A stretch of DNA of 64,000 nucleotides from a virus (Duplodnaviria; Heunggongvirae; Uroviricota; Caudoviricetes): IMG/VR virus record IMGVR_UViG_2877948078_000003. One strand, given 5' to 3'. Position 1 is the stretch's first letter. Each line of letters begins with the position of its first letter. The notes below the pieces were generated by a model. The model ran no database searches. It was not told the DNA's origin and saw only the letters and a program-made list of their open reading frames with translations. The translations under genes and the position numbers were made by a program. This document shows positions 4,133 to 49,226 of this stretch, piece by piece.

Positions 4133-7100
4133 TCAGCTGATACTGATACCTGATGCCCCCTTTTTCATCACAAGAACCTGTACATCACTGGCAAACGTAT
4201 CCGGCGGAATATTTCCCGAATGCCGTGTGGACGTGACAGTGAATGTCAGGGTTACGTGTCCACCTCCCGCACGCATATCCACAATTCGGGCGAAAACCTG
4301 AGGTGCATCATTCGCCACGCCGTCATAAATCACTGCACCGTTCATCAGCACCTTCAGATAACACATCGAATATGTTGTTCTGCCGCTGTCGGTACGCCTG
4401 CTTCCGCGAAATGTCAGCGGAAGTACCACTATCTGGCGGTCAAACGGGTGATCATCATACACAGTGAACGTGCGCGTTCCGGAAGGCCAGTTCACACTGC
4501 CCTCATTCTGACGCGGGAAAGCGCCACTCCCGCCCTTGATAAGATCCCCGATGATGTTTCCCGCTTTCAGTGTGCCATTTATCGTGCAGTTCTCCGCTAT
4601 CACGACATTATTCAGCGTGCCCGAGTTAGCACTGATATGTCCGCTGATATCCGCATTGCGGGCCGTCAGCCTGCCCTCCGGCGTCAGGGAGAACGTCGGG
4701 GGATTGCCGGATGACGTGATACTCACCGCAAACAGTCGCTTCAGGAACACGTCGTTCATGAACAGCTGATTCCCCTGTGCCACAAACAGCGGCGTGGTGT
4801 TGCCGTTCTCCGGGGTAATCATCGCGATACGGTCCGCCTGCAGCAGAATATTGCTCAGCGTCTGGCCATCAGCATCCTCAATCCCCGCACCAATACCGGC
4901 AACATACGGAATGCCGTTTTTCGTTTTCTGCACCTTCAGCATGTACAGCGCTGCCAGCTCATCATTCGTGTCTGACTGGACCTGCTGTATCTGCTGTATG
5001 GTGGCGCTCTGGTCTTCCAGCTTTTTATCCGTGGTCGAGGTGATTTCACTCCCTTTGTCATCCACGTACTGGCGGACCTGCGCTATCTGCCTGGCATTTT
5101 CCTCCGTGCTCTGGCTGACTGTCTGTGTGATTTCACTGCTCACCCGGTCCACCTGCTGACTCACCTGCGCGATGGCCAGCGTCTGGTCCTCATTCTTTTT
5201 CGCAACCAGCTGCGTGAGGCTGTTTTCTGCCTCCCCGATTTTTCGGGTCACTTCCGCAACATCCGTCTCCAGCCGCTGGCGGATGTCTTCTTCCAGTTGC
5301 GTGACCTCAGTACGCAGGGCTGACGCATCAATACGCTCTTTCAGTGCCTTCCCCAGCAGCGCCTCATCTATCAGCCCACGGAAAATTTCCAGATACCCTT
5401 CACCATCATTGCTGGCCTGCCCGCTGGCCTCCACAAACGCAGATTTCCCCACCAGGTTGACGCTGCGCACATAAAACCAGAAATCCGTCCCCGGCCTGAT
5501 GTGCGGGCCGGAGACGCTCCACTGGCTGCCGGTACCCAGATAACGGGCTGAGGTTTCCACCTGTGCCGTGTCCGTGATGCGTTTTTCTGAGAACCAGAAT
5601 TCATACTGTACCGTCGGGTCATACACCGCAGGATGCGGGACCACCGTTATCTGAAAATAGCCCGGCGTCAGTTCAATGCTGGCCGGTGCCGCCGGTGCAT
5701 TAATCCGGAATGTGGTGGTGGCAGGTTCGCCCTGCTGGCCGTAGCTGTTTATCGCCCTGACCGTCAGGGTGTATTCCCCGAGCGGCAGGCCACTGAAACG
5801 GTGCTCCGTGTCCGCCGTGATGGCGCTGGTCACCAGGCGGCTGTTCTCACCACTGCCACTGGTCAGGCGCAGACTGAAGCGCACGCCCTTCACCACCCGC
5901 GGCGTGTCCCATTTCGCCAGCGCCAGATACTGGCCGTCTGAGGCGCTCACCTCCACCGTGAGGTGCTGCACCGCCGGCGGGATGACGCTGTTCAGTGAAC
6001 CGGAGAGCGGCTCAAAGGTGGCCCCGTTATCCACGATGGCTTCTTTTTCCGGTACGTGCTGCACTGCCGTGATGGCAAAGGTGCCGTCCGTGTTTTCCCG
6101 GATGGAAACACAGCGGAACAGGCGACGACGCAGTGACGGCAGGGAGAGTCCCCACACACCGTATGTCGCCACGCCATCCGGCAGGGCGCTGACCTGTATC
6201 CGGTCCGGGGCCAGTTGTGCAGTGATGTCCACGCGCACCGGCTTACCGCTGCCGTTAATCAGGTTCACCGTCGATGTCCCTGTCTCCGGCATGGTCACCT
6301 CACGGTCCAGCGTCAGTGTGCGGCTGGCGGCATCAATGGACAGGATGCGTCCGCCGGTCAGGGTCCCGGCGTAGTCGTTATCACAGATTTCAATGATGTC
6401 ACCGGGCGTATGCCGCAGCCCCTGTGACCCGAGCGTGAAATCCACCGTCTGCGTTTCCAGCAGTTCTGTCTTTATCACCCACAGTCCGGCACGGTGGGCC
6501 TGACCGCGGCTGGTACAGCCAAACGCGTCCATCTTCAGCAGGTTGCGCCCGTAGCGCAGGATGGCGTCCGGGTCTTCCACCAGTTCCGTGGAAGTCTGCC
6601 AGCCGTTCTGCGGGTCGGTGTAATTCACCTCCACCGCCGTGTGCCGGTCCTTCAGGGCACTGAAGCTGTAGCGGAACCCCACGCCGTTATCATCCACCAC
6701 CACATCGCTGTTGGTGTACGGCCACACCACATCCGACGGGCGGTCCTGAACGAACGTCAGCGTCTGGCCGTTCCATACCGGCATACAGCGCATCGCCGAG
6801 CAGAAATCCCCCAGGACATCCCAGACCTTACGCTGCTGTGACAGGTACGCATTGAAAGTCATCCGCGGCTCTGTGCCCCCGAAACCATCCGGGACCGTCT
6901 GGTCACAGTACTGCCCGATGGCATACAGTGCCCACTTGTCCACATCCGCCGCCCCCAGGCGTTTTCCCATCCCGTAGCGCGGGTGGGTCAGCATGTCCCA
7001 CAGGCACCAGGCCGGGTTATTGCTGTATGCCGGTTTCAGACTCCCGTCCCAGATACCGCTGTAGGTGCGTTTTTCCGGGTCATAGTTTGACGGCACCTGA

Positions 7101-7828
7101 ATGATGCGGCCGCGGATATGGTAGTTCACCACCATCTGCTGGCCACCGAACTGCTCCGCATCCACCTGCAGCCCCACAATGGCCGTGTTCGGGTAGCACT
7201 GTTTCACATCGATGATTTCGGTGTATGACGACCACAGCGTTCTGTTCTGCAGCTGGTCCGTGGTACTGTCCGCCGTCACCCTGACCACCCGGATGTTAAA
7301 GGGGCGCTCAGGGAGATTATTCAGAATCACCGACGTCAGGTACTGCGAGGTGGTCTTGCCGTTAATGGTGACATCCTTCTCCGTCACCCAGTTACCGTTA
7401 CGCTCAAGCTGAATCAGCAGGCGGACAGAAGAGGGATTACGGTCACCCTTTGAGGTGGTCTCCACCAGTGACTGCACCCCGAAGGTGACCCGCAGACGGT
7501 CAATGTTCGCTGACGTGATGGTGCGCGTCACCGGCTTTGCCTTCGTCACCTCCACACCCAGTGCGGTTTCCGCCCCGGAGGACTCAAAGCCTTCCGGCGG
7601 TGTCTGCTCCTGCTCCCCGGCACGCCAGACGGCGGTCACACCGTGTATCACGGGATTACCGTCCGTGTCCGTCAGCGGGGTTTTGTTCACCAGAATACTC
7701 TGCAGTCCCTTCACCGGGCCTTCCACCGGTCCCTCACCGATGGCATCAATCACGCTCATCATCTGCGTGGATTTGAGATTGTCCTTCGCCTCACGCGGTG
7801 TGTGCCCCTTGCCGCCCCCTTTACCCAC
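4133..7828 (-). CDS. J: Host specificity protein J (central tail fibre)
   Basis: Near-colinear with lambda gpJ from [20 protein letters not shown] to the C-terminus; start reassigned to GTG 7828 behind a GGAGAGGGGG SD; the track start at 7879 is a TTG extension. Confidence 0.95.
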
Positions 7829-7870
7829 TCTGTCCCCCTCTCCTGTCTGATGTCTGAATCTGTTTATGCC

Positions 7871-7900
7871 CAAAAACAACAGGCACCCCGGAGGGTGCCT
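7871..7900 (-). terminator. Terminator-like hairpin just upstream of J on the coding strand
   Basis: Perfect 8-bp stem AGGCACCC/GGGTGCCT with 4-nt loop, followed on the minus strand by GTTGTTTTTGGG. Confidence 0.4.
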
Positions 7901-10545: not shown

Positions 10546-10874
10546 CAGTTCACCACCTGCTTAAACTCCGCGCTGAACTCAACGCGCAACATCCCGACCC
10601 GCGCAGACCACCCGGCACAGGTCACCTTTATCTGCCGGTATGCATAGGGTGGCTTCCACAAAAATGCCTTCCAGCCCCCGTGCTCTGCCAGGAACGCTTC
10701 CAGATGCCGGGCCTCCTCCCGGGTCACGGAAAGCATCACCCGGTATGTTTTCAGGTCAGCATTCAGCCCTGCCGCCATACGCTGTGAGTACCCGTCACCA
10801 AAACGCACTTCACGCACCGATGGCTGCGAGTTCACCTCCATATCCGGCTTCACTTTCCAGCGAAAGGTTTTCAT
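10545..10874 (-). CDS. M: Minor tail protein M
   Basis: Matches lambda gpM (MKTFRWKVKP..RVEFSAEF). Confidence 0.9.
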   Translation of the reverse strand: MKTFRWKVKPDMEVNSQPSVREVRFGDGYSQRMAAGLNADLKTYRVMLSVTREEARHLEAFLAEHGGWKAFLWKPPYAYRQIKVTCAGWSARVGMLRVEFSAEFKQVVN

Positions 10875-13450
10875 CGCCCGCTCCCTGATAACATACCGCC
10901 ATCACGCAACTGCAACCGGAGCTCATCCTGCGCCCCCTTGCGGGCCATGTCATACACCGCCTTCATCAGCTGCGGCCCCGCCTGTCCGTTGATACCGTCG
11001 TTCTGAATCACCACGTGATTGTTCTGATTAAAATTAATACCTTCCGCCCGCCGCATCTGCGCCGGACTTCCGGCACCACCCACATAACCCCCTTCCGCAT
11101 ATCCGCGCATCAGACGGTAAAGATTCCCCACGCCTATCCGGCTGGTTGCCTCCTTCGTGAAAACAAACTCCCCGCGGTGAACTATCCCCGCAGGCTCATA
11201 TTTGCCGCCCGTCCCCGTAAATCCGCCGGTCGCAAAATGAAAGTTCGCCGCCGCAGCCTCAATGGCCGTTCCCGTGGAAGCGGATGCGCCACCACCGAAA
11301 GCACCACCAATGGCGCTGCCGATACGCCCGACAATGCCCACCATGGCCTGTTTAAGCAGGATTTCTGTCATCATGGACAGCACCGAACGGGTGAATCCCC
11401 GCCAGTCTGCCTCTGCACCGGTCAGCATCGCCGCCATATTCTGTGCAATACCGTCAAAGGTCTGCGTGGCAGCACTTTTAACCTGCGAAAAACTGTCCGT
11501 CGCACTTTCCGCCCACTCCCCCCAGCCGGACTTCAGCCCGGCCAGCCAGTCACCGCGCAGCATGTCTTCATCCGCCCATGTCTGTTTCAGTGCCCCGGTG
11601 ACCTGTGCCAGCGCCTGCGGATTATCGCCGTACACGTCACGAAGACGCTGCGCTTCAGACTCCCGCTGTGCCTGACGGTCAGTGAGACCACGGGCTTTTG
11701 CGCTGATGGCGGCCTGCTTCGCGCTCTGCTGCTCTTCAAACCGCACCGCCTGCTGTGCCAGCTCATTCAGCCGTTTCTGGTATTCAACCTTGTCGCCCAG
11801 CTCAGCCAGCTGGCGTTTGTACTCCAGCGTCTCTTTCTCATGGGCCAGCAGGGATTTTTCCTGCCCGGATAACTGTCGTTTCGTGGCGGCCTCTTTCAGG
11901 ACTGCATACTGACTTTCCGCCTTCCATAAATCACGGCGCTGCTGGCTGATTTTCTCATTCGCACCGCTGTGCTTCTCCAGCGTCCGGAGCTCGGTTTCAA
12001 GCGCCAGCAGGGCAGCATGTGCCCGGTCTTCCTGGCGCTCACCGGCAGACACCTTCGCACCTGACGACTTCGGTTTTTTCAGCGTCGATTCATAATCCTT
12101 TTTCGCCGACGCCATCAGCGTGTTGTAATCCGCCTGCAGGATTTTCCCGTCTCTCAGGGCCCTGTTCAGTTCTTCCTGACGGGCGGTATATTTCTCCAGC
12201 GGCGACAGCAGGCGTTCATACGCTTTCTGCGCCTCTCCGGTATACTTCAGCTGTGACGCCTCACGCTCAGCCCTGTCCCTTGCCGCCAGTTCACCGGCTT
12301 TTTCCATATCCGACTGCAGCGTTGCCGCCGCCAGCCCCAGACGGGCATTTTCCCGGTCATCCCATGCACCCTGAAGGTTGGCCCGGAAAGAGGAGGTTTT
12401 ACCGCGGCGCTGGCTCCGGCTCTGGTACCACTGCCATTTTTTATCCGCCTCATCAAATGCCTTCTGCGCACTGGCGAGCATATCCGCTGAGGATTCAGGA
12501 CGACCGATATCCAGAATGGCATCCCACATCGATTTGAACGCCTTTCCTGTTTTATCCGCCCAGGTTTCCAGCGTCCCCATGTTCTCTTTCAGGCGGCGGG
12601 TCTGCTCATCAAAGCCTTTCGTGGCAGCATCGTTCGCCGCCTGTAAGGCACCGGCCTCGTCTCCGGAACGCTGCAGCTGTGCAACATACGCAATCTGCTC
12701 CGCCGTCACGTTGCGGAACTGGCGTGCCATCGCAGTCAGCCCCGACGTCGGGTCGGTGGTCAGTTTTCCGAAAGCCTCTGCAACCTTGTCCACCTCCACA
12801 CCGGAGGCAGACGCAAAACGCGCCACACTCTGGTTAATGGCATCAAACTGTTCACCACCACGCACACCGGCACTGACCAGGGCTGCCAGTGACTCTCCCG
12901 CCTGGTTAAACGTCAGCCCTGCCGCCTGCCCGGCTCTGGAGAGCGTCAGCATGCGCTCTGCCGTCAGTCCTGACTGATTACCGGAAAGAACCAGGGTTTT
13001 ATTAAACGCTGAAAGCGTGGAATCCCCCTGGTACCAGGCGTACGCCAGCGCACCGGTCGCCACCGCCAGCGAGGTGACCCCGACCATCGGCAGGCTGATC
13101 GCACCGGCAAGCCCCCGGAACATGGGGATCATCCCGCCGAATGAGTCCTTCACCTGACCGCCCTGTTGCAGCAGGATGAGCCAGGGATTCTGACCACCGG
13201 CAAGCTGCGTGGCCACGTCGGTGAACTGCATGGGTAGCATACGCATGGCGGCTTTATACTGCCCGACGGACATCCCGGCTTTTTGTGCAGCCAGCGCCTG
13301 GCGGCTCAGCCCCTGCTCAACAGCAGTGGCGGTTTTTCTGGCGTCAGTCTCCAGTCCTGAAAAATGACGCCTTACGCGGGTCATCTGCTCATCGAAACGG
13401 ACCGCATCCAGACTCAGGTCAATAACAAGATCACCAACCGGCTGGGACAT
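10871..13450 (-). CDS. H: Tail tape measure protein H
   Basis: 859 aa, colinear with lambda gpH. Confidence 0.9.
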   Translation of the reverse strand: MSQPVGDLVIDLSLDAVRFDEQMTRVRRHFSGLETDARKTATAVEQGLSRQALAAQKAGMSVGQYKAAMRMLPMQFTDVATQLAGGQNPWLILLQQGGQVKDSFGGMIPMFRGLAGAISLPMVGVTSLAVATGALAYAWYQGDSTLSAFNKTLVLSGNQSGLTAERMLTLSRAGQAAGLTFNQAGESLAALVSAGVRGGEQFDAINQSVARFASASGVEVDKVAEAFGKLTTDPTSGLTAMARQFRNVTAEQIAYVAQLQRSGDEAGALQAANDAATKGFDEQTRRLKENMGTLETWADKTGKAFKSMWDAILDIGRPESSADMLASAQKAFDEADKKWQWYQSRSQRRGKTSSFRANLQGAWDDRENARLGLAAATLQSDMEKAGELAARDRAEREASQLKYTGEAQKAYERLLSPLEKYTARQEELNRALRDGKILQADYNTLMASAKKDYESTLKKPKSSGAKVSAGERQEDRAHAALLALETELRTLEKHSGANEKISQQRRDLWKAESQYAVLKEAATKRQLSGQEKSLLAHEKETLEYKRQLAELGDKVEYQKRLNELAQQAVRFEEQQSAKQAAISAKARGLTDRQAQRESEAQRLRDVYGDNPQALAQVTGALKQTWADEDMLRGDWLAGLKSGWGEWAESATDSFSQVKSAATQTFDGIAQNMAAMLTGAEADWRGFTRSVLSMMTEILLKQAMVGIVGRIGSAIGGAFGGGASASTGTAIEAAAANFHFATGGFTGTGGKYEPAGIVHRGEFVFTKEATSRIGVGNLYRLMRGYAEGGYVGGAGSPAQMRRAEGINFNQNNHVVIQNDGINGQAGPQLMKAVYDMARKGAQDELRLQLRDGGMLSGSGR

Positions 13451-43480: not shown

Positions 43481-45069
43481 TGGGACGCATAATTGATCTT
43501 GACGGAAAACCTTTCTCCTTTGACCCGGAGATGCAGAGTGCCGTGCTGGATATTCCGCAGATTGCCAGCCGTTATATTGAGCATCCGGCCTCGGGTATCA
43601 CCCCGAACCGGGCGGCACAGTGCCTTCGCGGGGCTGAACGTGGCGATCTGATTGCCCAGTCCGATCTGGCCGCTGACATTGAAGAAAAGGATACCCATCT
43701 TTTTGCAGAGCTGGGCAAGCGACGTCTTGCCATTCAGGGGGTGCCCTGGAGTATTGAGCCGCCCCCGAACGCCAGCGCGAATGAGAAAAAGGACGCGGAA
43801 ATGCTCGACGAATACCTGCATTCCGCCGACTGGTTTGATGCCATGCTGTTTGATGCCACCGATGCCATCCTGAAAGGCTATTCCTGCATGGAGATTGAGC
43901 ACGGGATGCTCGGTAAAATGCACATCATCCGCGCCATCCGCTGGCGTGACAGCGGGCATTTCTGCCTTAACCCGGATGATTTGAGCGAACTGCGGCTGCG
44001 TGACGGCAGCCATGCCGGGGTGGCGTTTCAGCCCTTTGGCTGGATAGTGCATCAGTCACGTTCACGCACCGGTTACGGCGGCGCAACAGGGCTTGTCAGA
44101 ACGCTTATCTGGCCGTTCATTTTCAAAAACTATTCCGTGCGCGATCTGGCTGAATTTCTGGAGGTGTACGGCCTGCCGATGAAGGTCGGTAAATACCCGT
44201 CCGGGGCAACACCGGAGCAGAAAAGCGCCCTGATGCGGGCGGTGATGGATATCGGGCGACGTACAGGCGGGATCATCCCGGCCGGGATGTCGCTGGAGTT
44301 TCAGGCAGCCGCGAACGGTCAGGCCGATCCGTTTGAAACCATGATTTCGTGGGGGGAGCGTTCCATCTCCAAAGCAATACTCGGCGGCACGCTGACCACG
44401 GAAGCCGGAGACAAAGGCGCGCGCTCGCTGGGTGAAGTGCATAACGAGGTGCGCCGGGAAATCAGGGATTCTGATTTACGCCAGCTGGCCGCCACGCTGA
44501 ACCGCGATCTGGTGTATCCGCTGTATGCCCTGAACACCGCCCACGCCATTGATATCCGTCGCCTGCCGCGTATCTGTTTCCAGACAAAAGAGCCGGGGGA
44601 TATCACCAAAATCACCAGTGCGGTGATGCAGCTCAGTACGGGGATGGATATTTCTGATCCCTGGATAAGGGAGCAGACCGGTATTCCGCAGCCCACGCCC
44701 GGTGAAGCCATCTTCCGTGTCCGTCAGAGTGGCAATGAACCTGCTCAGACAGACAAAGAGATGCCACCGGAAAAACAGGAGAAGACAGAGCAGACAGCGC
44801 TGGCTGCCAGACTGCCGGAAGCGAAAAGCAGCCCCCGTGATGAACTGGACGACATGGGGGATGCGGTGCCTGCCCGCCGGTTACAGGAGGCCATCGACCC
44901 GGTACTGGAGCCGGTCATTGATGCCATCAGAACGCGGGGGCTGGCGGAGGCACTGGCAGACCTGCCCGCCCTTTACCGTGAAATGGATGATTCCCGCCTG
45001 ATGACGCTGCTCAGTGATGCCATGTTTGCTGCGGAAATGAAGGGGATGCTGGATGGCACAGGGGATTGA
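43471..45069 (+). CDS. Portal protein (Mu gp29-like); start uncertain (GTG)
   Basis: 532 aa directly after the terminase. Confidence 0.8.
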   Translation: MLVVGRIIDLDGKPFSFDPEMQSAVLDIPQIASRYIEHPASGITPNRAAQCLRGAERGDLIAQSDLAADIEEKDTHLFAELGKRRLAIQGVPWSIEPPPNASANEKKDAEMLDEYLHSADWFDAMLFDATDAILKGYSCMEIEHGMLGKMHIIRAIRWRDSGHFCLNPDDLSELRLRDGSHAGVAFQPFGWIVHQSRSRTGYGGATGLVRTLIWPFIFKNYSVRDLAEFLEVYGLPMKVGKYPSGATPEQKSALMRAVMDIGRRTGGIIPAGMSLEFQAAANGQADPFETMISWGERSISKAILGGTLTTEAGDKGARSLGEVHNEVRREIRDSDLRQLAATLNRDLVYPLYALNTAHAIDIRRLPRICFQTKEPGDITKITSAVMQLSTGMDISDPWIREQTGIPQPTPGEAIFRVRQSGNEPAQTDKEMPPEKQEKTEQTALAARLPEAKSSPRDELDDMGDAVPARRLQEAIDPVLEPVIDAIRTRGLAEALADLPALYREMDDSRLMTLLSDAMFAAEMKGMLDGTGD

Positions 45070-46384
45070 TTTAGGTTATGCCGCCACCCTTCCCTCAAAA
45101 GAGGCGGTGGCATACTTCCGCGCCAAAGGGGAGCATATCAGCTGGAACTGGTTCGAAACAGACGCGGATGTTCATGCCCGTTCATTCACGGCGGCAAGAG
45201 TGGCACGCCTGGACGTACTGACCACACTACAGGCGGAAGTGCAGCGTGCTGTTGATGAGGGGATTTCACAGAAAGCATTTATCAGCACGCTGACACCCCG
45301 CCTGCAAAAGCTGGGATGGTGGGGAAAACAGATTGTGGTGGACAGCGCCGGTAACGCAGAAGAAGTGCAGCTGGGCAGTCCCCGCCGTCTGGCGCTGATT
45401 TACAACGTGAACACCCGTGTGGCTTACAATGCCGGGCGTTACACGCAGATGATGAACAACACGGACACGCATCCGTTCTGGCAGTATGTGGCGGTGATGG
45501 ACAGCCGCACCCGCCCGGCGCATTCCGCTCTTAACGGTCTGGTATTCCGCTATGACGATCCGTTCTGGAATACACACTACCCACCCAATGGCTGGAACTG
45601 TCGCTGCCGTGTCCGGCCATTGTCTCAGGCCCGTCTGGATGCAATGGGGTTATCCGTTTCATCCGGTCAGGATCATCTCTCCACCCGCAATGTTGAGGCT
45701 GGCGTGGATAAGCAGACCGGGGAAGTCAGAGAAATGCCGGTGACCACATATTCAGATGGCACCAGAACCATGACACCGGATGTGGGCTGGTCATATAACC
45801 CCGGTTCGGCGGCGTTCGGCACAGACCAGGCGCTGATCCGTAAACTGATCGAGGTGAAAAGCCCGGCGCTGCGGGAAATGGTGGTTCAGGAGATGAACAA
45901 CAGCCCGGAGCGGCAACTGGCGTTCCGCATCTGGGCAAAAAACATCATGAAAACCCGGCGAGGCGGTAACGATATCCGCACGCTGGGCTTTATGACCGAA
46001 AGCATTGCGCAGGCGGTGGAAAGCCGGACGGGAACGCCACCAGCCCGCCTGCTGGCGATGAGCGGTAAAAATGTGCTCCATGCGGACAGCATGAAACATC
46101 AGAATGACGGTATCGCCCTGACGCCGGAGGATTTCGGGCGCTTACCGGCAATGCTGGCAAGGCCAAAAGCGGTACTGTGGGACAAACGGCACAACAATCT
46201 GATGTATATCGTGGAAAATCAGGATGGCAGTGTGCAGATTGCCGTTAATGCACCGTACAGCCTGAAGCGTCAGCCGGATAAACTGGATGTGATTGTTAAT
46301 GCTTACCGGGTTATCAATATGGATAAGCTGAAATCGGATGTCCGGGGCGGAATGCTTGAGGTACTGGAAGGAGATATTGATTAA
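45053..46384 (+). CDS. Head morphogenesis protein (Mu F-like)
   Basis: 443 aa; TRPAHSALNG..YPPNGWNCRCR motif typical of the Mu F family. Confidence 0.8.
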   Translation: MAQGIDLGYAATLPSKEAVAYFRAKGEHISWNWFETDADVHARSFTAARVARLDVLTTLQAEVQRAVDEGISQKAFISTLTPRLQKLGWWGKQIVVDSAGNAEEVQLGSPRRLALIYNVNTRVAYNAGRYTQMMNNTDTHPFWQYVAVMDSRTRPAHSALNGLVFRYDDPFWNTHYPPNGWNCRCRVRPLSQARLDAMGLSVSSGQDHLSTRNVEAGVDKQTGEVREMPVTTYSDGTRTMTPDVGWSYNPGSAAFGTDQALIRKLIEVKSPALREMVVQEMNNSPERQLAFRIWAKNIMKTRRGGNDIRTLGFMTESIAQAVESRTGTPPARLLAMSGKNVLHADSMKHQNDGIALTPEDFGRLPAMLARPKAVLWDKRHNNLMYIVENQDGSVQIAVNAPYSLKRQPDKLDVIVNAYRVINMDKLKSDVRGGMLEVLEGDID

Positions 46385-46505
46385 CGGTCAGTGGCGGGGG
46401 TCGAACCCGCATACATGATCCACCCGGAGGCAGGCACCGACTTTACCAGTTAAGCGTACACTGACCGCCTGTTTATTTTATATTCATCCTTTATGCGGAG
46501 GCAAT

Positions 46506-46979
46506 ATGTCATCCATTGATGCCGCTGTCGTTGTTGACGTTACGCGTCTCCAGCGGGTCTTTGCCCGGCTTCAGTTTGTGGGTGGTGGAAAAGACCTGAC
46601 CCGCAGTGTGGCGTCCAGCCTTCTGTCATCGTCAGAAATGGCGTTTGAACAGGAAAAAGAGCCGGACGGCGAACGCTGGCATGACTGGTCAGATCCTTAC
46701 CGCAAGTGGCGTACCCGTAAGGGATACATGCCCGGCAAAATCCTGACGCTGAACGGCGATCTGGCCCGACGCCTGACCACGGATTATGGCGATACCTGGG
46801 CGCTGATTGGATCAAATGAGCCTTATGCGGCCATTCATCAGTGGGGGGGCCTGCCAGGTATGCCGCCTGGACCGGCGGCCATTGGTGCACGTCCGTATAT
46901 GGGCTTTGATCAGGTGGCAGAGCAGGAGATCATGGACGAAATCAGAAAACGCTTTAAAAAGGCCACAGAAACGCCTTAA
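46506..46979 (+). CDS. Virion morphogenesis protein (Mu G-like)
   Basis: 157 aa; position between F and the protease. Confidence 0.65.
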   Translation: MSSIDAAVVVDVTRLQRVFARLQFVGGGKDLTRSVASSLLSSSEMAFEQEKEPDGERWHDWSDPYRKWRTRKGYMPGKILTLNGDLARRLTTDYGDTWALIGSNEPYAAIHQWGGLPGMPPGPAAIGARPYMGFDQVAEQEIMDEIRKRFKKATETP

Positions 46980-47154
46980 TTGTTTAAGGTATGCAAATGC
47001 ATTACCTTACCCCCTTCAGGCGCGTGTCGTGATTTTCTAACCTGTATTTAACGGGCTTTAAAATCTGCGTGAAGCGCCTTTGCATTTTTTCCTGAAAGCA
47101 CTTCCTGAAATCCCGCAAAACCCGCCCTGAAAATTCCCGGCCTATGCTGCCGGA

Positions 47155-48279
47155 ATGAAGACGAAAAACACGCCCAAACTTGCTTATGCCATTCTGAATG
47201 CCATCAGCCTGTCCGCAGACGGGGACGGTGACTGGTGTCAGATCATGCCAGCCGGTCGGGTAAAGGCCCGTGACGGTCGCCCGGAAAAACCGGCCGAGGG
47301 CTGGCTGATCAACCATGCAGCCGTTGAGCGCATGGTCTCCCGTGTTGTGGCGCTCAATCAGCCGGTGAAAATTGACTACAACCACCAGACCCTGATTGAG
47401 GGACATCCGGCACCGGCTGCCGGTTTTGTGATGGCCTCACCGGAGAATTTTCGCTTCAGTGAAGAGCGAGGTTTCGAGGTGCGCCCGAAGTGGAACCCTC
47501 CGGCCCTTGAACATCTGCGTAATAACGAATTCCCCTGGTTTTCACCGGTGATTGGCTATGACGAGAGCACCGGCGAACCTGTCGAACTTCGGATGCTGGC
47601 TATTACCGGTGACCCCGGTCTGACCGGCATGAATCCTGTCGCCGCACTGTCGGCGGATGACCTTTATAACGCCTTAAACCCTCCTTTAAAGGATACCTCC
47701 ATGAATGAGCAATTACGCCAGTTGCTGACGGCGCTCGGTCTGACCGTGGCTGACGGTGACGAATTTACGCCGGAGCTGGGCACGGCAGCGCTGTCTGCCC
47801 TCACCGGGATCAAAACCCGTGCGGATGCACACGACAACCTGAAAACACAGGTCGCCAGTCTGTCGGCAGAGCTGGAAACTGCAAAAGGCACACCGGCTGG
47901 CGGCAGTATTGACCTGACGAAATACGTGCCCGTTGAAACGTATAACGCCCTGCGTACCGAATACGTTGCGCTGTCGGCGCAGCACGGCAGCACCACGCTG
48001 GAGCAGTTGCTGGACAAGGCCGAGTCCGAAGGACGCATCTTCAAAAGTGAACGCGGCTATCTGGAACAACTGGGCGGGCAGATTGGCGTGGCGGCACTTT
48101 CTGCACAGCTTGACGCCCGCCAGCCGGTTGCGGCCCTGACCGGCCTTCAGACCGACACCGTGACCGTGCCGGATAAAAAGACTGCCACCGCTGTGCTGTC
48201 GGCTGAAGATATCGCGGCCGCCAAACTGCTGGGTAAAACCGAAGCCGAGTTCCTGAAAATGAAAGAGGAAATGCAATAA
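47155..48279 (+). CDS. Head maturation protease / scaffold (Mu I-like)
   Basis: 374 aa immediately upstream of the major head gene. Confidence 0.7.
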   Translation: MKTKNTPKLAYAILNAISLSADGDGDWCQIMPAGRVKARDGRPEKPAEGWLINHAAVERMVSRVVALNQPVKIDYNHQTLIEGHPAPAAGFVMASPENFRFSEERGFEVRPKWNPPALEHLRNNEFPWFSPVIGYDESTGEPVELRMLAITGDPGLTGMNPVAALSADDLYNALNPPLKDTSMNEQLRQLLTALGLTVADGDEFTPELGTAALSALTGIKTRADAHDNLKTQVASLSAELETAKGTPAGGSIDLTKYVPVETYNALRTEYVALSAQHGSTTLEQLLDKAESEGRIFKSERGYLEQLGGQIGVAALSAQLDARQPVAALTGLQTDTVTVPDKKTATAVLSAEDIAAAKLLGKTEAEFLKMKEEMQ

Positions 48280-49226
48280 TGCCTACCCCGATTACACCGG
48301 CGATGATCACCGCCCTGATGACGGGCTACCGTTCTGATTTTCAGGCCGGGATGTCCATGGCCCCGTCGCAGTACAAAAAAATTGCGATGACCGTGCCCTC
48401 CACATCGAAATCCAACACCTACGGCTGGCTGGGGCAGTTCCCGCAGTTCCGTGAGTGGATCGGCTCCCGCGTCATCGAGAAGATGAAGGCCTATGGCTAT
48501 GCCATCGTGAACAAAACCTTTGAAGGCACCGTCGCCATTAACCGCGATGACTTCGAAGACGATAACCTCGGTATTTATTCCCCGTTGTTCCAGGAGATGG
48601 GGCGCGCTGCGGCGGTACAACCGGATGAGCTGGTCTTTGCTGCCCTGCGTGACGGGATCAGTGCGGCCTGCTATGACGGTCAGAACTTCTTTGATACCGA
48701 ACATCCGGTTTACCCCAAAGTGGATGGCTCCGGGGATGCGCAGATGGTCAGCAATATGTTTGTGGCAAAAACCGGCTCTGTCGGCGCACAGGCTGATTAC
48801 AGCGGTCCGGCCTGGTATCTGCTTGACTGCTCCCGCGCGGTAAAACCGCTGATTTATCAGGATCGCCGTAAGGCTGAACTGGTTGCCCAGACCAAAGTCG
48901 ATGAAGGTCGCGCATTCACCGATAACGAATTTGTGTTTGGTGCATCCGCCCGTCGCAATGTGGGCTACGGCTTCTGGCAGATGGCCTACATGATGCAGTC
49001 ACCGCTGACGCTGGATGCACTGTGGCACGGCTGGTCAGCCATGCGCGAATTTACCGCTGACGGTGGCCGCAAACTCGGCATTAAACCCACCCATATTGTT
49101 GTCCCCACCTCGCTGGAAAAACAGGCGGTGCAGCTGCTGGAGCGTGAACTGTTCGCAGACGGAAACGCAACCGTCTCTAACGAGATGAAGGGCAAGCTGG
49201 AGCTGGTTGTCGCGGATTATCTGTAA
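48279..49226 (+). CDS. Major head subunit (Mu T-like)
   Basis: 315 aa; position and composition. Confidence 0.85.
   Translation: MPTPITPAMITALMTGYRSDFQAGMSMAPSQYKKIAMTVPSTSKSNTYGWLGQFPQFREWIGSRVIEKMKAYGYAIVNKTFEGTVAINRDDFEDDNLGIYSPLFQEMGRAAAVQPDELVFAALRDGISAACYDGQNFFDTEHPVYPKVDGSGDAQMVSNMFVAKTGSVGAQADYSGPAWYLLDCSRAVKPLIYQDRRKAELVAQTKVDEGRAFTDNEFVFGASARRNVGYGFWQMAYMMQSPLTLDALWHGWSAMREFTADGGRKLGIKPTHIVVPTSLEKQAVQLLERELFADGNATVSNEMKGKLELVVADYL

Follow-up and report, generated by a model that had tools for sequence, protein, structure and literature searches.

The question addressed here is what fills the 121 nucleotides (nt) between genes F (stop codon at 46382-46384) and G (start at 46506) of a Mu-like prophage, at a place where phage Mu itself has overlapping F and G genes, no spacer and no such element. 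The prophage lies in a 64,000-nt stretch of DNA from a virus of the class Caudoviricetes (IMG/VR record IMGVR_UViG_2877948078_000003), which is referred to below as the window. A first-pass annotation, made from the letters alone, had seen in this spacer a tRNA-like structured element on the minus strand or, alternatively, a complex terminator on the plus strand. Here we present comparative evidence that the spacer very probably holds a real and transcribed RNA gene with the shape of a tRNA. This RNA and the F protein's C-terminal domain (MuF-C) probably belong together, the RNA being the antidote or partner of a nuclease that is delivered by the virus.

Sequence and structure of the RNA element

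Read on the minus strand from 46466 to 46386, the DNA of the element is GGTCAGTG-TAC-GCTT-AACTGGTA-AAGT-CGGTGC-CTGCC-TCCG-GGTGG-ATCATGTAT-GCGGG-TTCGACC-CCCGC-CACTGACC, and the RNA reads GGUCAGUG-UAC-GCUU-AACUGGUA-AAGU-CGGUGC-CUGCC-UCCG-GGUGG-AUCAUGUAU-GCGGG-UUCGACC-CCCGC-CACUGACC. The T-arm stem-loop GCGGG/TTCGACC/CCCGC and the acceptor-like pairing of 8 base pairs (bp) are present as they were first quoted; the coordinates of all arms are given in Table 1. The 3' end of the RNA gene lies 1 nt from the stop codon of F. The tRNA genes of Escherichia coli encode the 3' CCA; here the bases after the 3' end are GTTAATC and not CCA, as had been recognized, and TTA in this string is the complement of the F stop codon.

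A search of 501 nt with the Rfam tRNA model (RF00005) gave a score of 31.0 bits against a gathering score of 29 (E = 1.3e-4). Together with the covariation described below, this match supports the proposal that a tRNA-like element is read from the minus strand in the F-G spacer. Acceptor, D and T arms are all placed by the model; the anticodon arm is passed over, its usual 18 nt being replaced by 24. The first-pass annotation had called both the D arm and the anticodon arm non-canonical; this holds for the anticodon arm, which is aberrant, and not for the D arm, whose GCUU/AAGU stem and loop with G18 and G19 are aligned by Rfam. A scan of the whole window (64 kilobases, kb) against Rfam with default filters and the gathering threshold gave no match, because the speed filters lose the element at this length. 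ARAGORN reported no tRNA in the window, and in the relatives either nothing or one 'tRNA-???'. A family-specific covariance model, built from 34 sequences, has a single match in the 64-kb window (92.9 bits, E about 1e-19) and no match in phage Mu. Many complete E. coli genomes bear the label 'tRNA-OTHER' on exactly these bases, assigned by the annotation pipeline PGAP; the sequence occurs in about 173 of 5,426 complete genomes of this species.

Folding of the single sequence, which had been suggested for both strands, is weak either way, with z-scores of -2.2 for the minus strand and -1.2 for the plus strand (the latter at -29.9 kcal/mol), so that the case must rest on comparative data. Measured against a decoding tRNA, the element keeps the cloverleaf: the acceptor, D and T arms are there, and so are the conserved tertiary bases. 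The anticodon stem of 5 bp with a 7-nt anticodon loop is absent, the window having a 4-nt loop on a 5-bp hairpin; also absent are the 7-bp acceptor stem, the unpaired discriminator base and the encoded CCA (-1:73 is paired in 41 of 48 relatives).

Conservation and covariation

Relatives were gathered in four ways: by a DNA pattern in viral contigs, by protein G in viral contigs, by a DNA pattern in one genome per species, and by the N-terminal part of F in metagenomes. The second and the fourth of these sets are blind to the RNA. Structure statistics refer to 48 distinct sequences aligned to the covariance model. Standard pairs are formed in 96.3% of 816 cells, and changes on both sides of a pair (compensatory changes) occur in 14 of the 17 pairs, including all 8 acceptor pairs. 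None of 500 shuffles reached the observed percentage of paired cells, the observed numbers of pairs and cells changed on both sides, or the observed covariation score, and when the 3' partner is slid by 1-3 columns, pairing falls to 33-54%. An alignment made with MAFFT only gives the same picture as the model alignment. The stem cells hold 52 G·U against 2 A·C or C·A, the latter being the cells that a plus-strand RNA would turn into G·U; this indicates that the functional strand is the minus strand of the window.

Invariant among the 48 sequences are U8, A14, A15, G18, G19, A21 and U54-U55-C56; A58 occurs in 47 of them, position 57 is a purine, and the last base of the variable loop, the would-be partner of A15, is nearly always U. 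The pattern of the genome scan itself fixed several of these tertiary bases; the G-based set, which is free of the pattern, shows the same invariance. The -1:73 pair is G:C in 21 sequences, A:U in 15, U:A in 3 and G·U in 2, and it is unpaired in the Photorhabdus clade. No family member encodes CCA. The region of the anticodon arm is hypervariable in sequence and length, and outside it the RNA hardly changes. Folded under constraint, 34 relatives share one plan: a short stem at the base, then an internal loop, and at the apex a hairpin whose cap is often the tetraloop UUCG or UCCG and in some members a longer loop; the GNRA caps GAAA and GUAA occur in further aligned relatives. With the anticodon loop replaced by a closed hypervariable hairpin, the RNA cannot decode. 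Judged by the alignment, the preserved part is the body of a tRNA with all the bases needed for the L-shape.

Variants of the T loop occur in close relatives. The change A58C (TTCGCCC; window 46399-46405) is found in the near-identical viral contigs L034, L036, L039, L042, L044 and L046, and G57A (TTCAACC) in another lineage (L027, L028). Genomes of E. coli O157:H7 carry a one-base variant without the PGAP label 'tRNA-OTHER', probably A58C.

Several known RNA types were considered and rejected. The histidine identity pair G-1:C73 is present in the window, but the covariation and the loss of pairing at -1:73 mark it as an extension of the helix and not as an identity mark. The alanine identity pair G3:U70 is absent, a tmRNA-like RNA has no support from Rfam, and for YrlA and Y RNA there is no Rfam match at E<=10, the ends of the element forming an acceptor stem.

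Transcription signals

The only promoter-like site between 46000 and 47200 is the minus-strand pair TTGCCT/TAAAAT. Its -10 hexamer ends 8 nt before the stem, and its -35 hexamer overlaps the complement of the Shine-Dalgarno sequence of G. In 37 of the 48 distinct relatives a -10 hexamer with 5 or 6 matching bases stands 5-12 nt upstream of the stem, in variants such as TAAAAT, TATACT, TATAAT and TATAGT and amid differing surroundings. A clean terminator of hairpin and U-run follows directly after the stem in the Photorhabdus clade and in one copy from Bisgaardia (L105). Enterobacterial copies have neither this terminator nor CCA, and some 3' processing is therefore needed. No open reading frame (ORF) of at least 40 amino acids (aa) lies within 46385-46505. 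From these signals the element looks like a transcription unit of its own.

Distribution of the family

The element family occupies the F-G spacer of many gammaproteobacterial Mu-like phages. In the set gathered by protein G, most loci with a G that is 41-100% identical to that of the window have an F-G spacer of 110-170 nt, and these spacers hold an element of the same kind on the strand opposite to F and G. The two genes overlap in phages of the Mu type. Hosts in the genome scan are Photorhabdus, Edwardsiella, Erwinia, Citrobacter, several Pasteurellaceae, Shewanella, Alishewanella, Alkalimonas, Marinomonas, Marinobacterium and Rheinheimera. The canonical order of F, element and G is kept in 19 of the 26 genome-scan loci; the twentieth is L105, for its second and weaker copy.

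A description of the element was not found in the literature under the themes tRNA-like, Mu-like, prophage, tRNA-OTHER and O157 small RNA, and neither a paper nor an Rfam family was found for it, nor a paper on its link with MuF-C. Already known are the 'tRNA-OTHER' entries in RefSeq; an RNA class with a fixed genomic address, which is well supported by the data, has so far not been described.

Association with the tail domain of F

F is a head protein that is thought to be ejected with the DNA. In the window its Phage_Mu_F domain covers residues 58-187 and its MuF_C domain residues 347-420, the latter with 29.1 bits against a cut-off of 27.6; the motif H343-A-D-S-M-K-H349 is encoded at 46079-46099. 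Iyer et al. (2017; PMC5512222) assign MuF-C to the PBECR domains; they regard the copy of Mu as inactive, predict active RNases among the orthologues and also predict RNA binding. A Lys-His pair in the first helix is a signature common to colicin D, PBECR3 and CdiA-CT EC869 (bioRxiv 10.64898/2026.08.28.747851). MuF-C is predicted to belong to the group of RNase folds named BECR (Barnase/EndoU/colicin-D/E5/RelE).

The element tracks the intact motif, written H-x-x-S-x-K/R-H overall, almost exactly across more than 100 related phages. In the viral set, all 23 F proteins next to an element have L-H-x-D-S-x-K-H together with the VNAP and INAYR stretches, and these residues are missing from all 11 intact F proteins of close relatives without the element (Mu, L054, L058/60, L066/68/76/78, L087/88 and L099). 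The substitutions found in place differ from lineage to lineage (LATTAD, LFNEANSADDDT, LSDAVSAADTK, VSQAN, TTLKSG). The motif is present in 19 of 19 cases in the genome set. The metagenome set, gathered with the N-terminal half of F only, contains 31 loci with the motif, the variants HASSDKH and HAHSEKH included, and 30 of them have the element. The same set holds 19 loci with a degenerate tail, in which F and G overlap or stand no more than 11 nt apart, and nine loci in which F ends before the tail domain and G follows directly; the element is found in none of the 19 and none of the nine.

A neighbour-joining tree was built from F's N-terminal 300 residues. In it, lineages without the element stand at five or more separate positions, and some of them lie within element-bearing clades (L087/88 by L083/84, L054 among the enterobacterial types and L099 by the Photorhabdus clade). 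This scatter indicates that the joint loss happened repeatedly. On these comparisons of sequences, a functional coupling of the RNA to an active MuF-C is likely.

Cassette exchange

The tail of F and the RNA are swapped jointly as one cassette. From the portal gene to the major head gene the window is about 97% identical to contig L007, save for a block at about 46130-46510 with 60-80% identity. By analogy, this pattern of exchange would be that of the toxin-tip and immunity cassettes of polymorphic toxin systems. In the MuF toxins studied by Jamet et al. (2017; PMC5576092), 89% of the toxin genes directly precede a small putative immunity ORF. The present locus shares with such cassettes the N-terminal MuF and the variable C-terminal domain, and also the partner gene that stands immediately downstream, occurs only with an intact effector motif and is exchanged together with it. 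It departs from them in that their immunity factor is a small protein; here the conserved feature of the spacer is an RNA fold.

Copies outside the F-G spacer

E. coli STEC17-183 carries an 8-kb island in mdtP (L129:23646-31640) with three tandem family members at its end. These copies (L002:3996-4297, minus strand, equal to L129:31330-31640) lie downstream of Mor and a run of GTGAAA repeats, and their arms match the enterobacterial types one each, namely those of the window, of L032/L047 and of L052/L053. PGAP annotates one copy as 'tRNA-Tyr' and one as 'tRNA-OTHER' and leaves the third without annotation. The genes of the island encode an integrase, Ash, Icd-like proteins, DUF4222, a RepA-type helicase, SSB, PerC and Mor. 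The island resembles a satellite of Mu-like phages. A relation of the family to host tRNAs, looked for by BLAST, was rejected: the sole 'tRNA-Tyr' match is the family member in this island.

Further orphan copies lie 130-300 nt from the ends of CRISPR arrays (L112:4456-4527, plus strand; L127:5375-5451, plus strand; L116:3251-3327, minus strand; L105:2910-2976, plus strand, and 4456-4535, minus strand). In Alishewanella aestuarii some 130 nt separate the orphan from a type I-F array, and in Rheinheimera soli and a related metagenome-assembled genome some 190 nt separate it from an I-E-type array, measured each time to the trailer end; in all three the 3' end of the RNA faces the trailer end. 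An array with 36-nt repeats in Bisgaardia hudsonensis is accompanied by two copies together with a lone full-length F (motif HANSLKH). The flanks of these orphans hold the start codon of G and the promoter on one side and, in Bisgaardia, scraps of the end of F on the other side, which identifies them as remnants of the canonical F-G junction. When the prophage decays, the part that survives in these remnants is the RNA gene with its promoter.

Two copies from Marinobacterium also lie outside the F-G context (L107:6648-6731 and L117:2524-2606, both on the minus strand). They share an upstream TTTGGACGTAGGG...GGGG motif instead of a sigma-70 -10 hexamer. The copy in L107 stands between genes for TnpB (IS605 OrfB) and a CsrA-like protein, with DUF4236 and resolvase genes nearby.

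Proposed function and alternative explanations

We propose, with a probability of about 0.45 and by analogy with known tRNase inhibitors, that the RNA is an antidote to the F nuclease rather than its substrate or cofactor. The MuF-C of element-bearing phages would be an active RNase of the colicin D type, and the RNA would mimic its tRNA substrate; MuF-C would bind it, find no loop to cut and be blocked. F would in this way be kept harmless in the producing cell, and the variable arm would set which F variant is recognized. Given a constitutive promoter, the antidote would also protect lysogens from F injected by related phages, and orphan copies would protect the cells or satellites that carry them.

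Several points weigh against this proposal. Mimicry of a tRNA substrate is argued from the likeness to colicins D and E5, and the co-occurrence of RNA and motif fits a substrate or cofactor equally well, so that only the orphan copies favour an antidote. The RNA gene adjoins the F tail, and linkage and block exchange alone give some association. One locus (L180) has the motif and a different structured RNA in its spacer. The A58C change would weaken the fold, yet the adjoining F is intact. The AlphaFold model of the F tail is mediocre, with a predicted local distance difference test (pLDDT) score of 71; it is shallow because the homologue search gave only 15 partial and close proteins. A sequence search of the PDB with the F-tail profile returned nothing meaningful. 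Finally, transcription of the strong late operon runs against the RNA gene and could cut its expression at the time when F is made.

The main alternative, that the RNA is the substrate, cofactor or cargo of the F nuclease, through processing of its 3' end, service as an adaptor or co-injection from the capsid, is unlikely. The same co-occurrence and cassette data would fit, enterobacterial copies need some 3' processing, and RNA binding is predicted for MuF-C by Iyer et al.; but orphans are kept without F, both in the island with three types and as remnants beside CRISPR arrays, which is expected of an antidote or decoy and not easily reconciled with a dedicated substrate, and the closed arm with its tetraloop cap looks resistant to cleavage.

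Quite unlikely is an anti-defence decoy independent of F, expressed early and constitutively, that soaks up a host defence enzyme directed at tRNA, for instance an anticodon nuclease or one that modifies the acceptor end. Such a role would suit the position in the accessory-gene zone of the Mu-like head operon and the promoter of its own. Phage tRNAs are known to act against tRNA-cleaving defences (PMC11555353, PMC10802454), and the Mu-like contig L183 has a solitary CRISPR repeat just after G. A decoy would however not account for the loss of the element together with the catalytic residues of F in at least five lineages, nor for the joint swap of F tail and RNA. A mimic that does not decode cannot replace a cut tRNA, and as a plain competitor it would presumably stand as one gene against the whole tRNA pool of the cell.

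A cis-antisense or transcription-interference device, which would damp leaky late transcription or guide RNase III to the F-G mRNA and owe its tRNA shape to stability, is improbable. Over its whole length the RNA could pair with the late mRNA at the F-G junction, and the -35 hexamer overlaps the ribosome-binding site of G on the other strand. The plus strand of the window also holds CGGAGGCA twice, at 46425-46432 as the complement of the hairpin sequence UGCCUCCG and at 46496-46503 at the Shine-Dalgarno sequence of G, so that the hairpin of the RNA could pair with the ribosome-binding site of G. Anti-Shine-Dalgarno pairing was nevertheless rejected, this 8-nt match not being kept in relatives: it is lost in L048, with a UUCG loop and a different Shine-Dalgarno sequence, and L043, with a different arm. 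Nor would an antisense device require invariant tertiary bases and covarying D and T arms, and the orphans have no cognate mRNA.

The plus-strand reading of the first-pass annotation, a complex intrinsic terminator or mRNA-processing structure after F, finds no support and is very improbable. It drew on the T-rich tract that follows the long-range stem on the plus strand, where the folding energy given above also applies. Against it stand the 52:2 count of G·U and A·C, the invariant tertiary bases, for which a terminator has no need, the plus-strand z-score of only -1.2, and the central hairpin, in which a plus-strand RNA would have A·C mismatches. The T tract, being complementary to the -10 hexamer, is not kept as a U-run in other clades. 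A terminator scan found none at the site of the element, the stem closing an 81-nt multi-branch fold. As the spacer contains no promoter for G, a terminator there would presumably sever this gene from the promoter that serves it.

A decaying tRNA pseudogene or attachment-site remnant without function, which the rejection by ARAGORN, the lack of anticodon and CCA and the bare PGAP label 'OTHER' might suggest, is extremely improbable in view of the same placement in Enterobacterales, Pasteurellaceae, Shewanella, Alishewanella, Marinomonas and others, of the compensatory changes in 14 of 17 pairs, and of the established knowledge that Mu-type phages transpose and use no tRNA attachment sites.

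Other RNAs in the F-G spacer

Phages with other types of F tail from metagenomes (L183, L186/189, L187, L190/192, L203) again have spacers of 95-170 nt; on their minus strand stands a TATAAT-like hexamer, and they hold a multi-branch RNA of another kind, which a long-range stem closes. Other structured RNAs of this sort, each with such a -10 hexamer and closing stem, are found on the minus strand about 100-170 nt after the F stop codon in L180, L183, L186, L187, L189, L190, L192 and L203. The consensus fold of L190/L192 has 35 pairs, 9 of them compensatory between the two sequences; that of the L180/183/187 group is less clear. An Rfam scan of these other spacer RNAs found no family. A speculative and rather doubtful extension is that the F-G spacer of MuF phages is a general slot for RNA immunity genes, with one structured RNA per type of nuclease tail. 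Under this extension the RNAs on the opposite strand may be tRNA-shaped for the HxxSxKH class and have other multi-branch folds for other tails. If true, it would be the first RNA-based immunity for a polymorphic toxin delivered by the virion. Orphan copies would then be shields captured by hosts and satellites, and those beside CRISPR arrays could guard cells that destroy the phage DNA, and so never receive the antidote gene, from the injected nuclease.

A separate observation concerns L183, where a solitary type I-F CRISPR repeat lies at or just after the end of G (L183:3668-3695, plus strand; Rfam CRISPR-DR4, 47 bits, E = 3e-8). This is the position at which Mu-like phages of Pseudomonas carry anti-CRISPR genes, and the repeat may be an RNA anti-CRISPR.

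Locus and gene context

The Mu-like prophage in the window has, among others, genes for a repressor and transposase A/B, followed by the portal, F, G, I and T genes (Table 1). Its F protein shares 59% identity with Mu gp30. At 98% identity, the region matches an annotated 'inserted Mu-like phage' in two records of Shiga toxin (Stx)-converting phages. The Mu-like prophage apparently lies beside or inside a lambdoid prophage (window 1-28000 against 28700-64000). Long tail genes on the minus strand at 4133-7879 and 10871-13450 are consistent with the Stx-phage records. The G-I spacer (46980-47154) measures 175 nt; at the equivalent place in Mu, just after G, a strong gyrase cut site is annotated (NC_000929 17879-17880).

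Table 1. Features of the F-G region and neighbouring genes in the window
Feature	Position	Strand	Evidence and remarks
tRNA-shaped RNA gene, 81 nt, positions -1 to 73, without anticodon loop or encoded CCA	46386..46466	-	Rfam, own covariance model, PGAP, covariation
Acceptor-type stem, 5' strand GGUCAGUG	46459..46466	-	pairs with CACUGACC at 46386-46393; 8 bp including -1:73
D arm, stem GCUU/AAGU, loop AACUGGUA (A14, A15, G18, G19, A21)	46440..46455	-	Rfam alignment; 3/4 pairs covary; loop bases invariant
Anticodon-arm replacement and variable loop, flanks CGGUGC and AUCAUGUAU	46411..46439	-	region skipped by Rfam tRNA model
Hairpin CUGCC-UCCG-GGUGG inside anticodon-arm replacement	46420-46433	-	
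T arm GCGGG-UUCGACC-CCCGC	46394..46410	-	99.6% of cells paired; 3/5 pairs covary
Sigma-70-type promoter, -35 TTGCCT (46499-46504), 18-nt spacer, -10 TAAAAT (46475-46480)	46475..46504	-	promoter scan
Predicted MuF-C domain, BECR/colicin-D-type RNase fold	46079..46381	+	Pfam MuF_C; literature class PBECR
Exchange cassette: last ~85 codons of F, RNA gene and promoter	46130..46510	.	sole divergent block against L007
Portal gene	43471-45069		
Gene F (MuF/gp30-type minor head protein, 443 aa)	45053..46384	+	Pfam Phage_Mu_F 100.7 bits, MuF_C 29.1 bits
Gene G (virion morphogenesis, Phage_tail_S)	46506..46979	+	Pfam 116 bits; divergent from RNA gene
Gene I	47155-48279		
Gene T	48279-49226		

Implications and comparison with known systems

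The F/gp30 head protein of Mu has been studied since the 1970s. If the proposed antidote role is true, relatives of this protein carry an injected RNase in most lineages, Mu itself not being among them, and the phages have an RNA answer to the problem of self-protection that bacteriocins solve with proteins mimicking tRNA. The label 'tRNA-OTHER' would then gain a function in about 3% of complete E. coli genomes, O157 and other Shiga-toxin strains included, and it would become testable what MuF-C does and what orphan tRNA-like genes do in satellites and defence islands. Should the antidote role be wrong, the family is still a well-supported class of non-decoding tRNA-shaped RNAs at a fixed address.

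Non-decoding RNAs with a likeness to tRNA include YrlA and Y RNAs, mascRNA, the vtRNAs of gammaherpesvirus 68 and 'tRNA-Other' of Bacillus cereus. The present RNA shares with them the elbow, the T arm and the acceptor-type stem without a working anticodon, and probably the use of host tRNA-processing enzymes. It differs from YrlA, which is circularly different and has its ends in the Ro-binding stem. To our knowledge none of these RNAs (YrlA/Y RNA, mascRNA, vtRNA, 'tRNA-Other') has been tied to a nuclease domain or a phage head gene.

RNA anti-CRISPRs, which are solitary repeats, are likewise phage RNAs that resemble a host RNA. The same holds for the phage tRNAs that evade defences, small phage RNAs resembling host RNA in a conflict (PMC11555353, PMC10802454); those tRNAs decode and replace the tRNA that was cut, which this RNA cannot do.

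With the MuF polymorphic toxins (Jamet et al. 2017, PMC5576092; Apk2, PMC12226406) the locus has in common the N-terminal MuF with a variable C-terminal effector, the protective gene (here a candidate) directly downstream, the exchange as a cassette and the orphan copies. Those systems have long C-terminal extensions and small immunity proteins, whereas in the locus described here the MuF is a 'short' one with 443 aa, the spacer lacks an ORF, and the downstream gene is a non-coding RNA on the opposite strand. By position, co-occurrence, exchange and orphans, the element behaves like the RNA counterpart of the immunity half of a MuF toxin cassette.

In type III toxin-antitoxin systems the RNA antitoxin ToxI consists of tandem short repeats upstream of the toxin gene, with which it is co-transcribed, and is cut by the toxin. 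As in ToxIN, an RNA is proposed here to neutralise an adjacent endoribonuclease on mobile elements. Unlike ToxI, it is a single tRNA-shaped RNA, convergent and, with the exception of the three-copy island, without repeats; membership in the type III systems was rejected for the single copy convergent with F where tandem repeats upstream would be expected.

ImmD and ImmE5 are protein inhibitors of the tRNases colicin D and colicin E5 and imitate the tRNA substrate. The system described here resembles these pairs in the RNase of BECR fold with a Lys-His active-site helix (both predicted in the present case) and in the partner gene beside the nuclease-coding end. It differs in that a phage head protein, and not a bacteriocin, carries the putative nuclease as its tail, and in that the mimic, a protein in the colicin systems, is here a candidate RNA with a true tRNA body. 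By these likenesses ImmD would be the closest analogy and the type III antitoxin the closest precedent among RNAs.

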